In this document: piece by piece, positions 12,471-17,825 of the stretch
Position numbering within the stretch: the first letter of the stretch is position 1
Layout of the letters: each line of letters opens with the position of its first letter
Source: Anaerolineales bacterium
GTDB taxonomy: Bacteria; Chloroflexota; Anaerolineae; Anaerolineales; RBG-16-64-43
NCBI GenBank assembly: GCA_049511715.1
Contig: JBEKXU010000002.1
Coordinates: 100,994-164,993, forward strand
Direction of reading: 5' to 3'
DNA: 64,000 bases
The notes under the pieces: model-generated
Seen by the model: the letters and a program-made list of their open reading frames with translations, nothing else
What the model was told of the DNA's origin: nothing
Database searches by the model: none
Position numbers and translations under genes: made by a program

Positions 12471-13751
12471 CTACTTTCCCGAACGGTGGAGCAATTCCTG
12501 TGCCCGGTCAATTCTCACGGAACCCTCGCGAACCATCTGCTCGGCAATGGTCCCAACCGCCTCGCCCTCCGCGCCCGCGGCCATGGCCACTTGGCGCGCG
12601 TGCAGGGACATGTGGCCGCGCTGGATTCCCTCGGTGGCCAGCGCCCGCAAGGCCGCCAGGTTCTGGGCCAAGCCGACGGCGGCGATAATCTCCTCCAGCT
12701 CGCGGGCACTGCTGACGCCCAGGATCTTTAGGGAAAGTCTGGCCAGGGGATGCACCTGACTCGCCCCGCCGACGATGCCCACGGCCAGGGGAAGCTCGAG
12801 CGTTCCGGACAGGTTCCCCTGGGGATCGCGTTCCCACGTTGAGAGCGAGGTATATCGCCCCGACCGAGCCGCATAGGCATGGGCCCCGGCTTCGACTGCC
12901 CGCCAGTCATTCCCCGTAGCGATCACCAGGGCATCGATCCCGTTCAGGATGCCCTTGTTGTGAGTGGCGGCGCGATAGGGGTCGCAGGCGGCGAAGGCCC
13001 AGGCCTCCAGGATTCCGTCGCGCACGCGCTCCCCCGAGTAGCGCTCGAAGGCAAGGCCCTCCACCGGGATCCGGCAACGGGCCCGGGCCAGGCGGCGATC
13101 GGCCAGGTTCGAAAGGATCCGCAAATGGACGCGCCCTCCCGTGATCCGCTCGAGTTCCGGGGCGAGCCTCTCGCAAGCTGTGTTGACCGAATTGGCCCCC
13201 ATGGCGTCGCGGACATCCCAGAGGAGGTGGACCACCAGAAAGGGACCGATGGGCGAGTTCTTGATCTCGCGGATCTCCAGCCCGCGGGCGCCCCCTCCGA
13301 GCCCCAGCAGCATGGGATCGGTCTGATTGGCAACCTCGAGAAGGTGATCTCGGTTCTCGAGCAGCTTCGCTTGCGCGAGCTGGAGGTCGTCCAGGTCCAG
13401 GAGTTGAATCTGACCGATCATCACGGGGTCGTCCGCTTCGGCCTGGAACCCTCCTGTGGCGCGCGCCAGTTTGGCCATGAAGGAGGCTCCCGCCACCACC
13501 GAGGGCTCCTCAATGACCATCGGGACAAGCATCTCCCGGCCGTTGACCACAAAGTTCGTGGCAAATCCGAGCGGCAGCGAGAAGACGCCGGCGACGTTCT
13601 CGATCATCTGGTCCGCCTGCGAGGGATCCAACCCGCCGCTGCGGAAGGCCTGGCCGGCCTGCGCCTCAAAGCCGAACTGGGCGCAGACTGTCTCCAGCCG
13701 CTTCTGCCAGGGCTGGTTGTAGAAGCCGGGCAAGCGGGAACTCAGGGGCAT
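12471..13751 (-). CDS. HMG-CoA reductase (class II-like)
   Basis: [44 protein letters not shown] and GIVGG motifs. ATG at 13751 ([11 protein letters not shown]) gives ~426 aa. Confidence 0.85.
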
Positions 13752-14509
13752 TATGGCGAATCTTTCTTTCCGTTCCTTGCGCCTTGGACAGACTTGAAGA
13801 AAAGGCAAGATGAAACATCACAGTACTCGGCCCCGCCTAGCAATTGCTCTCAGGGTCCCCGCCCAGCAGGGATAAAGCGCTTGTTTCAGGAGCCTGAGAG
13901 GAAATGAGGGAGCTTGGGAAGGGCGACCCGAAAGGTGCCAAGTATCCTCAATGATGCCTGCCATCAGCTTTGAAAGCCGACCGGGGCGAAAACGCGGTCA
14001 AGTCGCCATGAGAAGACTGGCTCCTTAGGGATCACACGGACCGGTGTCGTCGGAGATGTGTGCCTCCCAGACCTCATCAGAGAAAAGGATATGGCCTTGA
14101 CTGCTCGGCAGGGTCAGGGCCGTCCCCGTCGAGGCGGACCAAGACCAGCCCGCGGATGGTCCTAAGCCGAGAATCGGGGAACGGAGCAGGGCACGAAGCT
14201 TGCATGGGCTGGCAGGTGCTCACTTGCAATGGCCAGCTTGGTTCCGCTCCAGCCGGCGGAGATGGCGTCCGGAGGCAGAGGGAGGACTCGGCGATGCTCC
14301 TGGGGCACCGGCCAAGAACGTTTCCGCAGTGTGAATTTATTGTTGGGGCAGCGTGAAAGGCCGGGCGCATTCTGGCAAGATCGGTGCGCTTCCGGTATCC
14401 AGGCCGGAGGCACCAATCTCTCTCCTATAATGCCGGCAGAACACAAGGCGGGGAAGCCGCCCCACACGTCGGCCGAATTCATTGGGTTCACGAGGAACAG
14501 GAGAAAAAC

Positions 14510-14872
14510 ATGTTCACACGAAGGATGCTAACCATTGTCGCCACCGTGGCTGTCTCGTTGGTGTTTGCCACGGCCGCCTTTGCCTTTGCGGCGGCAAACA
14601 CCGTGCCTGCGACGACTTCGGGCAGCGGCTCGAATACCATCAGCGGGTACACGATTACTAATGTCAGCTACGGTCTGGACACGACCACCCCTACGAATAT
14701 CGATACCGTGACCTTCACCCTCAGCCCCGCGGCCGCGACGACTGTGAAGATCCAGTTGGTGACCGGAGGCTCTTGGTACAGTTGCACCGATTCGACAGGC
14801 AGTGTGTCCTGCACGACAACGGGCGCAACCGTGGCCGCGGCCAATAGCCTCACGGTGGTTGCCAGTCAGTAG
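14510..14872 (+). CDS. Small secreted Thr/Ser-rich protein with SipW/TasA-like leader (candidate substrate 1)
   Basis: ATG at 14510 lies 8 nt after GGAG. The leader is MFTRRMLTIVATVAVSLVFATAAFAFAAANTVPATT. The mature part is beta-rich with 2 Cys. It sits just upstream of the SipW-like peptidase gene. Confidence 0.7.
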   Translation: MFTRRMLTIVATVAVSLVFATAAFAFAAANTVPATTSGSGSNTISGYTITNVSYGLDTTTPTNIDTVTFTLSPAAATTVKIQLVTGGSWYSCTDSTGSVSCTTTGATVAAANSLTVVASQ

Positions 14873-15039
14873 TGAGTTGTCCATCCGGCTCCCCGAGCTG
14901 GAGCGGAGGTTGCCGTCGCGCAACGGAGGCCCGGCGATGGCGCAGGCGGCTTGCTCACGGCCTACTCCCTCTACAATCCGCAAGGAGGAAGCCGTGAGCG
15001 AATTGTGTCTGGGAGCGCCTGTTCAATGGAATAGACCGC

Positions 15040-17409
15040 ATGAGGAAGTATCGCCGGTGGTACGGCATCGTCCTTGGGGCCTGCTGCCTCGTCTTGCTGG
15101 TTGCGGCTTGGCTGGTTTTTGCTCCCGTTCCTTTCGGCGGCCAGTCGAGCTATGTGATCGTAACCGGCAACAGCATGGACCCCATGTACCCGCCGGGCGA
15201 CCTGGTGATTGTCCGGGAAGAGCCCCACTACCAGGTCGGAGATGTCGTCGCCTACTTCGACGGCCAGCTGAACCGATACGTCATTCATCGCATCGTCGCG
15301 CAAGACGGCAACCGGTTCACCCTCAAGGGAGATCACAACGGCTGGACCGACTCGGATCAGCCCCTGGCCAGCCAGATCATCGGCAGGGCCTGGATTCAAT
15401 TACCCGGTCTCGGCCCGGGCGTGCAGGCCGTGCGCACCCCGCTGGCGATGGCTCTCCTGGCCGTCCTGGTGGGTGTGCTCCTGGTAACCGCCCTGCGGGC
15501 TTCTCCGCCGCGAAAACAAGGGGGGAGATTCTTGAAGCGAAAAAGTGGTTTTGAACAGAGTCTGGTTCTCGGGAGACTGGCGGAGGCGAAGGAGGGGATC
15601 GTCTTTGCCGCGGCCGTCCTCGGCGCGGCCTCGATTCTGCTGGGTGTCTTCGCCTTCACCCGGCCGCTCAAGGTGACGGAGGCCGATAACCTGAAATACA
15701 ACCAGGTCGGTGCCTTTGGCTACGGGGCGCCCGCACCGGCCGGGGTCTATGACACCCCCATGATCCAATCAGGCGAACCGGTCTATCCGTCCCTGACCTG
15801 CGGGATCACTGTGGATTTCGGTTACGCCCTGGTCGCGGATGCGCCCATCTCGGCCGGGGGCTCCTATCGCCTCACAGCTCAGGTAAGCGACCCCGCGGGC
15901 TGGCAGAGGACCCTGCCGCTGCAGCCGGAGACCGCCTTTTCGGGAGACCATTTCACCACCTCAGGCCAGCTCGACCTGTGTGAGATTCAAAACTTGGTGG
16001 CGGCCAAAGAGTCGATCACAGGAGACAAGCAGCCGATCTACATGGTGAAGGTCACTCCCCAGGTCGCTGTCCAGGGGACGATCGGCGGACGTCCTTTGAA
16101 CGACAGCTTTGCTCCGGCCTTGACCTTCCAGCTGGACGCACAGGAGCTCCACTTGGTACAGCCCGACTCACTGACGAACCCTCTGGCCCCGACCAAGGCA
16201 GGGGTGCTTCCGGAGTCTCTCACGGCAGCCAACACCTTTTCCATTTTTGGGGGGAACCTGCCGGTCGGGGCCGCCCGGCGCATCTCGTTGGCAGGTTTCA
16301 GCCTCGCCCTCGTGTGCCTCGGTCTTTTCGCCGTGGGTCTGCTCTACGCCGTGCGCAGGGATCCGGCGGCCCTGGTCGACTTCAAGTACGGCCCGCTGTT
16401 GGTGGGCGTGGGCCAAGGCCAACTGCCGACTCCGGGCCCGCGGGTGGTCGAAATGGCCTCCATCGATGACTTGGCCAAACTGGCGGACCGGGAAGGATAC
16501 CTGATCCTGCACGAACCGGGCGATGGCTGCGACCGCTATGTGGTCCAGGTCGGCGAGGTGACCTACCGCTTCACCTGGGTTCAACCCCAGGCCGCGCCCT
16601 TGCTGGCAAGCCCGCCGGTGGTGGAAAGCGAGCTCCGGGCAGCACTCGCCGCCGGTCAGTTCGAGGTTTACTATCAGCCCATTCTCTCGCTCGACAGTGG
16701 AAAGGTCACCGCCGTGGAGGCGCTGCTGCGCTGGAACCACCCTGAACGGGGGATCCTTCCAGCCATGGAATTCATGGCCGCAGCGGAGGAAACGGGGTTC
16801 ATCGTCTCCCTTGGGAGCTGGGCCCTGCGCACCGCGTGCTTGCAGCTCAAAGCCTGGAAAGCGCAAGGGCTCCCGGCCCTCTCCCTATTGGTGAATGTCT
16901 CTACCCGCCAGCTCAAGGAGGGCCTGAGCGATGTGGTGGCCGAGATTCTTCGTGAGGGCGATCTGGAGCCTGAGCGCCTGCACCTAGAGATTCGCGAGGA
17001 AAGCCTCCTGGAGGATCCGGAGGCGCTGGGACCCAAGCTTCAGGAGCTCCGGGATCTGGGGGTGCACCTCACCCTGGACAACTATTGCGGCAAGTCGCCT
17101 CTGGATCTCCTGCGGCGCGTGCCCATCAGCGGCCTGAAGCTGGACTGGAGATCGGTGGAGAAGATAGCAGTCGACTCGGCCGAGGCTGCCGTTACGCGAG
17201 CCGCCGTGAGCGCGGCACATAGCATGGAACTGCAGGTCGGGGCCGAGGGTGTCGAGACCGAGGAGCAGCTGAACCTGCTCCGCTCCCAAAAGGTGGATGC
17301 CGTACAAGGCTACTTCCTGGGTCACCCGATGCCTGCGGAGCAGGCGGCCAGCCTGATCCGGGAGAAGATGGTCAAGCCGCGCAAGAGCCCGCGGTCGATA
17401 GTGAGCTAG
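15040..17409 (+). CDS. Fusion protein: SipW/archaeal-type S26 signal peptidase I + 4-TM body with ~230-aa outside domain + cytoplasmic linker + EAL domain
   Basis: S26B layout: TM1, GNSMDP (Ser45), VIHRIV (His83), KGDHNGWTDSD, TM2. Then TM3, a long extracytoplasmic segment and TM4. C-terminal EAL motifs: YYQP, VEALLRW, NVS, EIRE, KLD, AEGVE, QGY. Loop 6 is degenerate (LDNYCGKSPL). Confidence 0.8.
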   Translation: MRKYRRWYGIVLGACCLVLLVAAWLVFAPVPFGGQSSYVIVTGNSMDPMYPPGDLVIVREEPHYQVGDVVAYFDGQLNRYVIHRIVAQDGNRFTLKGDHNGWTDSDQPLASQIIGRAWIQLPGLGPGVQAVRTPLAMALLAVLVGVLLVTALRASPPRKQGGRFLKRKSGFEQSLVLGRLAEAKEGIVFAAAVLGAASILLGVFAFTRPLKVTEADNLKYNQVGAFGYGAPAPAGVYDTPMIQSGEPVYPSLTCGITVDFGYALVADAPISAGGSYRLTAQVSDPAGWQRTLPLQPETAFSGDHFTTSGQLDLCEIQNLVAAKESITGDKQPIYMVKVTPQVAVQGTIGGRPLNDSFAPALTFQLDAQELHLVQPDSLTNPLAPTKAGVLPESLTAANTFSIFGGNLPVGAARRISLAGFSLALVCLGLFAVGLLYAVRRDPAALVDFKYGPLLVGVGQGQLPTPGPRVVEMASIDDLAKLADREGYLILHEPGDGCDRYVVQVGEVTYRFTWVQPQAAPLLASPPVVESELRAALAAGQFEVYYQPILSLDSGKVTAVEALLRWNHPERGILPAMEFMAAAEETGFIVSLGSWALRTACLQLKAWKAQGLPALSLLVNVSTRQLKEGLSDVVAEILREGDLEPERLHLEIREESLLEDPEALGPKLQELRDLGVHLTLDNYCGKSPLDLLRRVPISGLKLDWRSVEKIAVDSAEAAVTRAAVSAAHSMELQVGAEGVETEEQLNLLRSQKVDAVQGYFLGHPMPAEQAASLIREKMVKPRKSPRSIVS

Positions 17410-17420
17410 ATGGAGGGACG

Positions 17421-17825
17421 GTGCACATGCTGGGATCCCGGATGATCAAACTCACGCTGCTCGGAGGGGCCGCGCTGTTGCTTCTGGCGGTGATCACCGC
17501 CTTCGCGGCCTCAAACTCCGTGCCTAAGACTCTTCTCACGAGGCAAAGTTTTGCGATCAACGCCAACAGCCTGAAACCGTCTGGGTGCGCGTCGCTCAAC
17601 TTGAGTGTCATCGTAACCGGATCCGGAACGATCACCCACAATGGATCTTCCAATGCGCTGATCCTGGGGAGTGCCGGCAACGATACCATCACGGGCGGCT
17701 CCGGAGATGACTGCATTCTGGGCGGGGGAGGCCACAACACCATCAACGGCAGACAGGGGACGAACGTCTGCTACGGCAACAAGACAGACACCTTCACGAA
17801 TTGTCAGACCATCATCTACTACTGA
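17421..17825 (+). CDS. Small secreted Cys-containing protein with matching leader and RTX-type GGxGxD repeats (candidate substrate 2)
   Basis: GGAGG at 17412-17416; start is GTG 17421 or ATG 17427. The leader ..LLLLAVITAFAASNSVPKT parallels the 14510 ORF. Ca-binding-type repeats read ITGGSGDDCILGGGGHNTINGRQG. Confidence 0.7.
   Translation: MHMLGSRMIKLTLLGGAALLLLAVITAFAASNSVPKTLLTRQSFAINANSLKPSGCASLNLSVIVTGSGTITHNGSSNALILGSAGNDTITGGSGDDCILGGGGHNTINGRQGTNVCYGNKTDTFTNCQTIIYY

Follow-up and report, generated by a model that had tools for sequence, protein, structure and literature searches.

What is the small protein encoded at positions 14510-14872 of this DNA for, and which enzyme matures it? 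The window analysed here, 64,000 nucleotides (nt) of contig JBEKXU010000002.1 from an Anaerolineales bacterium (Chloroflexota), carries at this place, on the plus strand, an open reading frame (ORF) for a precursor of 120 amino acids (aa), which begins MFTRRMLTIVATVAVSLVFATAAFAFAAANTVPATTSGSGSNTISGYT and is called small protein 1 below. It is followed by a gene for a 789-aa signal peptidase fusion of the S26B (archaeal/SipW/TafD) type and by a gene for a second small protein with RTX repeats, small protein 2 (Table 1). An original prediction, made from the letters of the DNA, held that small protein 1 is a structural (fibre or sheath) subunit, and that its leader ends in a junction motif common to small protein 2 and reminiscent of SipW-dependent signal peptides. 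The reading favoured here, to which we give a probability of about 0.5, is that small protein 1 is a secreted structural subunit that would be cleaved by the private S26B peptidase of its own operon and built into a fibre or polymer together with the RTX partner.

The evidence that carries this reading begins with the junction between leader and mature protein. Both leader and junction strings quoted in the original prediction are exact. A six-frame search of the whole genome assembly (3.2 Mb, 96% complete) with the pattern A-[FYILVMW]-[AT]-A-[STA]-N-[ST]-V-P returned exactly two matches, one in small protein 1 and one in small protein 2, against 0.005 predicted by composition. The common motif is therefore confirmed, and within this genome the tag is exclusive to the two genes that flank the S26B peptidase. 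It is also conserved in homologues, and the junction is the best conserved part of small protein 1. Residues A25, N30, T31, V32 and P33 show no change in 31 homologues (55-83% identity), and in 120 homologues their conservation is 90% or more; of 108 sequences that each represent a 50%-identity cluster, 83% retain the N, 70% the T, 78% the V and 77% the P. The family consensus of the junction, (Y/F)-A-(F/Y)-(A/T)-A-(S/A/T)-N-T-V-P, is almost invariant, and the logo of the 108 representatives reads A-A-Y-A-F-A-A-(A/S)-N-T-V-P-x-(S/T)-x-A-G-D-G. The small protein 2 family (54 homologues) keeps a looser tag, A-x-A-A-(S/A/G)-N-x-V-P-x-(T/S). The tag was also considered as an N-glycosylation sequon and rejected as such, N-T-V and N-S-V not being N-x-S/T.

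Gene order points to the same enzyme. The ORFs of 79 loci were scored with profiles of both small proteins and of three parts of the 789-aa protein, and synteny was counted in the 66 loci with at least 3.5 kb of downstream flank. In 64 of these 66, from two phyla, the order is small protein 1, S26B peptidase, RTX small protein 2, so that the adjacency of the junction family to an S26B peptidase holds well beyond this genome; three independent metagenomic loci have the same cassette order. The product of 15040-17409 matched TIGR02228 (archaeal-type signal peptidase I, SPase I) at 62-66.5 bits, above the cut-off of 51.85. Of 76 orthologues, 68-70 retain each of its residues Ser45, His83 and Arg84, 69 retain Asp98 and 64 retain Asp104 (84-92%). 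Since a single ordinary SPase I of the LepB type is encoded elsewhere in the genome (contig C8; TIGR02227, 142 bits), the S26B enzyme is an additional, private peptidase. The genome holds no TasA, TIGR04089 or DUF1102 protein and thus no such alternative real substrate for this peptidase, which leaves the two tagged proteins as its only evident candidate substrates there. Gene linkage and a separate LepB, by which a dedicated S26B substrate is recognised, were both found, and it appears quite probable from these sequence data that the private peptidase has small protein 1 as its cognate substrate.

The peptidase is part of a larger polypeptide with four predicted transmembrane segments. Its mid body corresponds to DUF5305, which scored 19.9 bits in the 789-aa protein and 30-50 bits, above the Pfam cut-off, in five orthologues, and it ends in an EAL domain (Pfam E = 1.3e-58). 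The catalytic domain stands alone (~185-225 aa) in 15 loci, is joined to the mid body in 41, and to the mid body plus EAL in 8 of the 66 full-flank loci, namely this genome and 7 others. The EAL fusion is confined to some Anaerolineales and Chloroflexia loci (L015, L027, L028, L034, L042, L064, L071, L076 and L090). The fused EAL domain suggests a coupling to cyclic di-GMP (c-di-GMP); with the peptidase fused to DUF5305 and to a cytoplasmic EAL domain, maturation may be tied to this messenger. The loci with the bare peptidase are mainly from Thermoleophilia; in them the tag of small protein 2 is more degenerate (for example N-P-L-P, N-A-V-P, N-I-I-S), and small protein 1 keeps N-T-V-P. At locus L007, a separate small EAL gene directly follows the RTX gene.

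The gene of small protein 1 is real and widely conserved, and is predicted to code for a tiny secreted beta-rich protein. Translation and homologues confirm the ORF as it had been drawn. The closest homologues likewise open with MFTRR, and one database gene call starts at Met6 instead, giving 115 aa. At least 352 homologues of 117-126 aa with 55-83% identity were found by a word-indexed search. When a profile of the mature part was scored against 1.84 billion cluster representatives, 1591 50%-identity clusters were matched at E<=1e-3 and 864 at E<=1e-10, nearly all of them of 115-135 aa with the domain at the same place. Relatives turned up in 360 species when a single genome of each species was scanned, so the ORF belongs to a widespread family. 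The best 79 loci are from Actinomycetota (Thermoleophilia, Gaiellales) and Chloroflexota (Anaerolineales, Caldilineaceae, Chloroflexia, Dehalococcoidia), and include Anaerolinea thermophila (locus L071). No model of Pfam-A or NCBIfam matched small protein 1, and no paper describing its family, or both small proteins, was found in the literature.

The leader of small protein 1 has an n-region that reads T-R-R-M-L-T, and both n- and h-regions differ freely in sequence between homologues. The twin arginine is present in only 29 of the 108 cluster representatives, many of which have Lys alone, so export is predicted to be of the Sec type and not of the twin-arginine translocation (Tat) type; Tat export, and with it the twin-arginine class of Tafi sensu stricto, was rejected on this ground. 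Sequence reading also led to the rejection of a lipoprotein leader, as there is no lipobox Cys, and of a type IV prepilin leader, as there is no G↓F-T-L-I-E motif. Small residues at -3 and -1 are found for A25↓F26 in 96, for A27↓A28 in 90 and for A29↓N30 in 85 of the 108 sequences (79-89%). These three nested positions within the junction are the candidate cleavage sites, and we infer that the cut falls at one of them.

Counted from N30, the mature part has 91 aa, among them 23 Thr and 13 Ser, and its charged residues are 3 Asp and 1 Lys only. This composition (40% Ser+Thr, 4% charged) is typical for extracellular structural proteins. AlphaFold2 monomer models were computed for the full-length protein with 120 homologues and for the mature part with 91. 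In the full-length model, residues 2-29 form one helix and residues 30-43 have a predicted local distance difference test score (pLDDT) below 50. Six strands were modelled (47-56, 63-72, 78-82, 89-95, 98-107 and 115-119), and C92 and C101, invariant in the alignments of 31, 120 and 108 sequences, lie on adjacent ones. In the mature-only run the beta domain (47-119) reached a pLDDT above 90 with a predicted template modelling score (pTM) of 0.72, and the tag stayed disordered, with no fold-back onto the beta domain; its pLDDT is below 50 in both models. The earlier description of a mature part of about 90 aa, rich in Thr and Ser, all-beta and with 2 Cys, thus agrees with the composition and the model. 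Residues 25-43 are the most conserved segment and at the same time the sole part unplaced in the monomer (pLDDT <50-55), which would fit a segment acting between molecules.

Three cluster representatives of 432-615 aa (P0201, P0221 and P0300) are natural fusions of the two small proteins. Each consists of a tagged leader with a small protein 1 domain, a second small protein 1 beta domain and 1-2 modules like small protein 2. The second domain is without profile positions 1-12 or 1-22, i.e. the tag, and the small protein 2-like modules are without a leader of their own. Read as 'Rosetta stone' sequences, these fusions say that both module types would work side by side in one extended structure, and that the tag would belong to the N-terminus and not to the fold. 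The leader junction of the fusions has A-(T/S)-L-(T)-V-P in place of A-S-N-T-V-P. In addition, 13 of the 66 loci carry 2-3 paralogues of small protein 1, which could be major and minor subunits.

The proposed resemblance to SipW-dependent signal peptides did not stand. TIGR04088, the model of the SipW-cognate signal peptide class (34 positions, cut-off 19 bits, junction of the G-G-G-T-aromatic-A-x-F-x-D/N type), did not match small protein 1 or 2 at E<=10, and its best six-frame scores in the whole genome, 12.2 and 11.8 bits, were both on other contigs and none at the locus. TIGR04089 (alternate signal-mediated exported protein, RER_14450; cut-off 60 bits) matched nothing in the genome at E<=1, nor in either small protein, and PF12389 (TasA/camelysin, Peptidase_M73) and PF06510 (DUF1102) had no matches in the whole genome. 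With all four model searches empty, membership in the SipW-cognate, TasA and DUF1102 families was rejected. What is left of the likeness to the TasA junction is loose, namely an aromatic residue followed by Ala at -2/-1 if cleavage occurs at A25↓F26. The structures were compared by Foldseek with the Protein Data Bank (PDB), whose library includes TasA, AbpA, thread, Tafi and chaperone-usher structures, and the best E was 0.87 for the full model and 0.25 for the high-confidence mature model, with template modelling (TM) scores of at most 0.43. As the profile and Foldseek searches were both empty, small protein 1 is not a detectable member of the TasA superfamily. A sequence profile search of the PDB returned only neocarzinostatin (E 0.05, 78 residues, 37-114). 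Neocarzinostatin apoproteins are small secreted disulfide-bonded immunoglobulin (Ig)-like proteins of actinomycetes; kinship with them was rejected, neocarzinostatin being absent from the Foldseek list and its context different. A Big_13 Ig-like domain was likewise set aside, its 15 bits against a cut-off of 27 (Pfam, E<=10) being a generic beta-sandwich hint only.

The structural role that had been proposed nevertheless fits the published TasA, Tafi and AbpX loci, even though neither Foldseek nor PF12389 detected a TasA-like fold. In those loci, donor-strand fibre subunits are accompanied by a dedicated TIGR02228 peptidase and often by DUF5305 (PMC11821415, PMC12337348, PMC9674648, bioRxiv 10.64898/2026.01.04.697558). 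In B. subtilis, SipW processes TasA and TapA, and TasA polymerises by donor-strand exchange (PMC9674648, PMC10151520); TapA donates an N-terminal strand similar to that of TasA and nucleates the fibre (PMC10151520). Like the TasA operon, the cassette described here has three genes, with a private S26B peptidase and two predicted secreted substrates, one abundant and one minor, that are similar at the extreme mature N-terminus. In both cases the gene of the minor partner abuts that of the peptidase, and a housekeeping LepB-type peptidase is also present in the genome. The differences are as clear. TasA has ~230 aa and small protein 1 ~95 aa, with no match between them by sequence (PF12389, TIGR04088) or Foldseek; the minor partner TapA has an Ig fold, whereas an RTX beta-roll protein is found here; the order is subunit-peptidase-partner instead of tapA-sipW-tasA; the peptidase is often fused to DUF5305 and in this genome to EAL as well; and the hosts are Chloroflexota and Actinomycetota, not Bacillota.

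In the haloarchaeal Tafi system, the multi-transmembrane S26B peptidase TafD (Ser40, His83, Arg84) is needed for TafA processing and fibres, as a tafD knockout showed (PMC11821415). TafG is a DUF5305 protein thought to assist TafD, and bacterial SPase-DUF5305 fusions were noted by the authors (PMC11821415, PMC12337348). The peptidase of the cassette is likewise a multi-transmembrane S26B enzyme with its Ser45, His83 and Arg84 at nearly the same positions. In both systems the peptidase works, or would work, with DUF5305, and small beta-rich secreted subunits are encoded alongside, with several paralogues per locus. The Taf subunits, however, are jelly-rolls of the DUF1102/TasA superfamily of 150-370 aa, for which there is no match here. 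Haloarchaeal Tafi use Tat, while the leader here is Sec-type, and a Taf locus comprises 5-7 genes, those of tip and terminator proteins included, while the present locus has three. DUF5305 is a separate protein in Tafi and fused to the peptidase here.

A preprint reports TIGR02228 peptidases of the dedicated kind, and DUF5305, beside AbpX subunits as well, and names a SPase-DUF5305 fusion of Anaerolinea thermophila as an example (bioRxiv 10.64898/2026.01.04.697558). In the locus census, A. thermophila (L071) has small protein 1, the peptidase-DUF5305-EAL fusion and RTX small protein 2, and the fusion named in the preprint is an orthologue of the peptidase here; the small flanking proteins of the Anaerolinea locus are not described in the passages of the preprint that were consulted. 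The AbpX/AbpA loci and the present one are alike in having a dedicated TIGR02228 SPase I beside a small secreted fibril subunit, with DUF5305 as accessory (PMC9245690). Calcium is a further parallel, by Ca-mediated donor-strand complementation in AbpX and by an RTX partner here. AbpX and AbpA are unlike small protein 1 in being without detectable homology to it. Secreted matrix proteins beside a SipW-type peptidase are also known from sipW-bsaA of Clostridium perfringens (PMC11580942) and from TIGR04089/TIGR04090 proteins. They differ from the present case in that BsaA polymerises via intermolecular isopeptide bonds (PMC11580942), and in that the model of the TIGR04089 'alternate signal-mediated exported proteins' has no match in this genome. 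LapD-LapG-LapA, the c-di-GMP-gated proteolysis of an RTX adhesin, offers a functional analogy to the EAL-fused form alone: an EAL-type domain in the cytoplasm is linked through the membrane to a protease outside it, which acts on the N-terminus of a surface protein with RTX repeats. LapG, however, is a C93 cysteine protease and not an S26B enzyme, EAL domain and protease form one polypeptide here, and the EAL form of the cassette is limited to 8 loci out of 66. Systems in which matrix proteins have a private S26B peptidase of their own are a known type; undescribed are the subunit family with its tag, the partner with RTX repeats and, in Chloroflexota and Actinomycetota, the compact layout of three genes.

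Taken together, these features suggest the following sequence of events. Small protein 1 would be exported by Sec, and its signal peptide would be removed inside the junction by the S26B peptidase of the operon, not by LepB. Cleavage would expose an N-terminal tag, (F-A-A-A)-N-T-V-P-x-T, followed by the Gly-rich linker and the six-strand disulfide-bearing beta domain. The mature protein of ~91-95 aa would then be the major block of an extracellular matrix fibre or surface polymer, and RTX small protein 2, translated right after the peptidase, may stand to it as TapA does to TasA, a minor partner dependent on Ca2+ that would serve as initiator, anchor or cap. The step of maturation may in addition be tied to c-di-GMP in this Anaerolineae genome, via the fused EAL domain. 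Cleavage by this particular peptidase, polymerisation and its mechanism, and control by c-di-GMP are all steps that we infer. That the product is a polymer or fibre at all has roughly even odds, and assembly by classical strand donation must be given lower odds than the polymer, in view of the shortness of the tag, its central Pro and a beta domain that looks complete in the model. A bolder version is doubtful: a new minimal fibre-subunit fold family of ~90 aa, with N-T-V-P polymerisation free of chaperone and usher (by strand donation or covalently), nucleation or anchoring by the RTX protein and, in Anaerolineae, a c-di-GMP-gated supply of subunits.

Several observations speak against the fibre. 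N-T-V-P-x-T is without the alternating hydrophobic pattern of classical donor strands, in addition to its shortness and its central Pro, and the beta domain is confidently predicted as a complete unit in the absence of the N-terminal segment. Foldseek showed no relative among solved fibre subunits (TasA, AbpA, threads, Tafi, chaperone-usher pilins), its top 50 being free of TasA, AbpA, thread and Tafi chains, and no sequence model of the TasA superfamily matches small protein 1. Moreover, in 15 of the 66 loci the peptidase is short and lacks DUF5305, and three loci (L040, L052 and L069) have small protein 1 with no cassette nearby.

Some of these points would be expected if small protein 1 were cleaved by the S26B peptidase and then stayed a monomeric, small Ig-like protein, secreted or at the surface, such as a coat, an adhesin or a ligand-binding module, possibly bound 1:1 to RTX protein 2, with the tag as a P-prime recognition element only. 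This explanation accounts for synteny and tag exclusivity just as well. The model shows the beta domain as a complete unit by itself, with high confidence; the tag, with Pro at +3, is poorly suited to form a beta-strand and is missing from the internal domains of the natural fusions; and there is no structural similarity to known fibre subunits by Foldseek. Conserved P-prime residues are normally unneeded by this class of peptidase, yet no part of the mature protein is better conserved than N-T-V-P, which two otherwise unrelated proteins have in common. Tandem paralogues and beads-on-a-string fusions suggest repeated head-to-tail contacts, and all characterised systems that have a dedicated S26B peptidase make fibres, whether DUF5305 is present or not (PMC11821415, PMC9674648, PMC12337348). 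On this balance a monomer is possible but rather unlikely.

The peptidase might instead not cut at all. The hydrophobic stretch L7-F26 is long enough to span the membrane, AlphaFold extends it to a continuous helix (2-29), and the partner combines its four predicted transmembrane segments with a signalling output domain, so that small protein 1 could be an uncleaved type-II signal anchor whose juxtamembrane motif docks on the peptidase-DUF5305(-EAL) protein as a regulatory or sensory partner. This seems improbable, as the -3/-1 rule is obeyed at the three nested sites in 79-89% of the 108 sequences, the partner keeps the catalytic Ser, His and Asp, most loci are without EAL and 15 of the 66 have the bare peptidase only, and it is the residues just after the helix, not the helix sequence, that are conserved. 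The remaining explanation separates the two genes functionally: small protein 1 would be an ordinary Sec-exported, LepB-processed protein, next to an S26B peptidase with other or no specific substrates, their adjacency reflecting co-regulation only. The junction does also resemble a normal A-x-A site of SPase I, a functional-looking LepB is present and TIGR04088 does not recognise the leader, but synteny in 64 of 66 loci across two phyla, the restriction of the tag to the two flanking genes, the absence of another candidate substrate family from the genome (PF12389, TIGR04089 and DUF1102 searched) and the requirement of the adjacent peptidase for processing in Tafi (PMC11821415) make this very improbable. 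Cleavage by the S26B peptidase followed by assembly into a fibre or polymer is retained as the preferred reading.

If this reading is right, its consequences reach beyond one genome. In Bacillota and Archaea, dedicated peptidases of the SipW/TafD type are coming to be recognised as markers of matrix fibres that need no chaperone (TasA, Tafi, AbpX), and the cassette would extend the principle to two large, mostly uncultured phyla of soil and sediment (Thermoleophilia/Gaiellales and Anaerolineae/Chloroflexia). Small protein 1 is less than half the size of any known subunit and without detectable homology. As ~1600 clusters are without a Pfam or NCBIfam model, naming the family would annotate thousands of 'hypothetical proteins'. 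Control of subunit supply through the EAL domain, if true, would be the first control by a second messenger at the step of signal-peptide cleavage. The three-gene system is small enough for reconstitution in a laboratory host and would thus be a convenient test bed, both for substrate choice by private signal peptidases and the part of DUF5305 in it and, with the EAL form, for c-di-GMP control of matrix assembly at processing.

Table 1. Positions in the window of the small protein 1 gene, its predicted segments and the other members of the cassette.
Feature	Position	Strand	Basis or remark
Shine-Dalgarno-like GGAG	14500..14503	+	6 nt before small protein 1 ATG; read in sequence
Small protein 1 gene (P0001)	14510..14872	+	ORF, translation, homologues; unnamed family
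Predicted signal peptide region, residues 1-29	14510..14596	+	basic n-region (TRR) and hydrophobic helix; AlphaFold helix 2-29
Junction tag A25-F-A-A-A-N30-T-V-P33	14582..14608	+	near-invariant columns; candidate cleavage sites inside
Gly-rich linker, residues 34-43 (x-T-x-A/S-G-x-G-S-x-x)	14609..14638	+	alignments; G38 and G40 invariant; low model confidence
Predicted six-strand beta domain, residues 44-120	14639..14869	+	AlphaFold; invariant C92 and C101; Thr/Ser-rich, charged residues almost nil
Gap from small protein 1 stop to peptidase gene	14873..15039	+	167 nt; no terminator-like site, no Rfam match
S26B peptidase + DUF5305-like body + C-terminal EAL, 789 aa	15040..17409	+	TIGR02228, Pfam matches
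Small protein 2 gene (RTX Ca-binding repeats, 6 Cys)	17421..17825	+	HemolysinCabind E = 9e-9
Second tag copy A27-F-A-A-S-N-S-V-P35	17499..17525	+	small protein 2

The gap between small protein 1 and the peptidase gene (14873-15039), given earlier as 168 nt, exists as stated. The role assigned to it, expression of the subunit in excess, did not find support: no terminator-like site, and hence no terminator or attenuator, was found in it, its RNA fold is not unusual (z = -1.28), and the two genes are 60-220 nt apart in Chloroflexota loci, while in Actinomycetota they abut or overlap. The ~700 nt upstream of small protein 1 (13809-14509) are ORF-poor, and a consensus scan of this region found no sigma-70-like promoter. 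A search for Rfam elements and riboswitches in 13700-15100 returned nothing beyond a chance-level mini-ykkC at E 0.97. Small protein 2 begins 11-17 nt past the peptidase gene. Its translation probably starts at the ATG at 17427, with MLGSRMIKL as the first residues, which agrees with homologues and with a 132-aa database call, and not at the GTG at 17421.

A census of neighbours revealed no other structural or assembly gene conserved beside the cassette, and no sortase, usher or glycosyltransferase. The commonest immediate neighbours are PAS-rich histidine kinases, receivers and LuxR/GerE regulators (~7-12 of 132 neighbour genes, ~10%), among others at L007 and L009. The loci L040, L052 and L069 form an 'orphan' subfamily with the leader M-x-x-L-L-G-L-K-G-L and the tag S-Y-A-F-T-A-S-N-T-V-P, in which the 3-6 kb downstream contain neither a peptidase nor an RTX gene. 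A single metagenome-assembled genome (MAG) is the source of both L040 and L052, as two copies. Finally, locus L028, from a record titled Acidobacteria bacterium MAG, has a cassette almost identical to those of Chloroflexota loci L027, L042 and L090, and as its contig is just 3.6 kb long, the Acidobacteria label may be a binning error.

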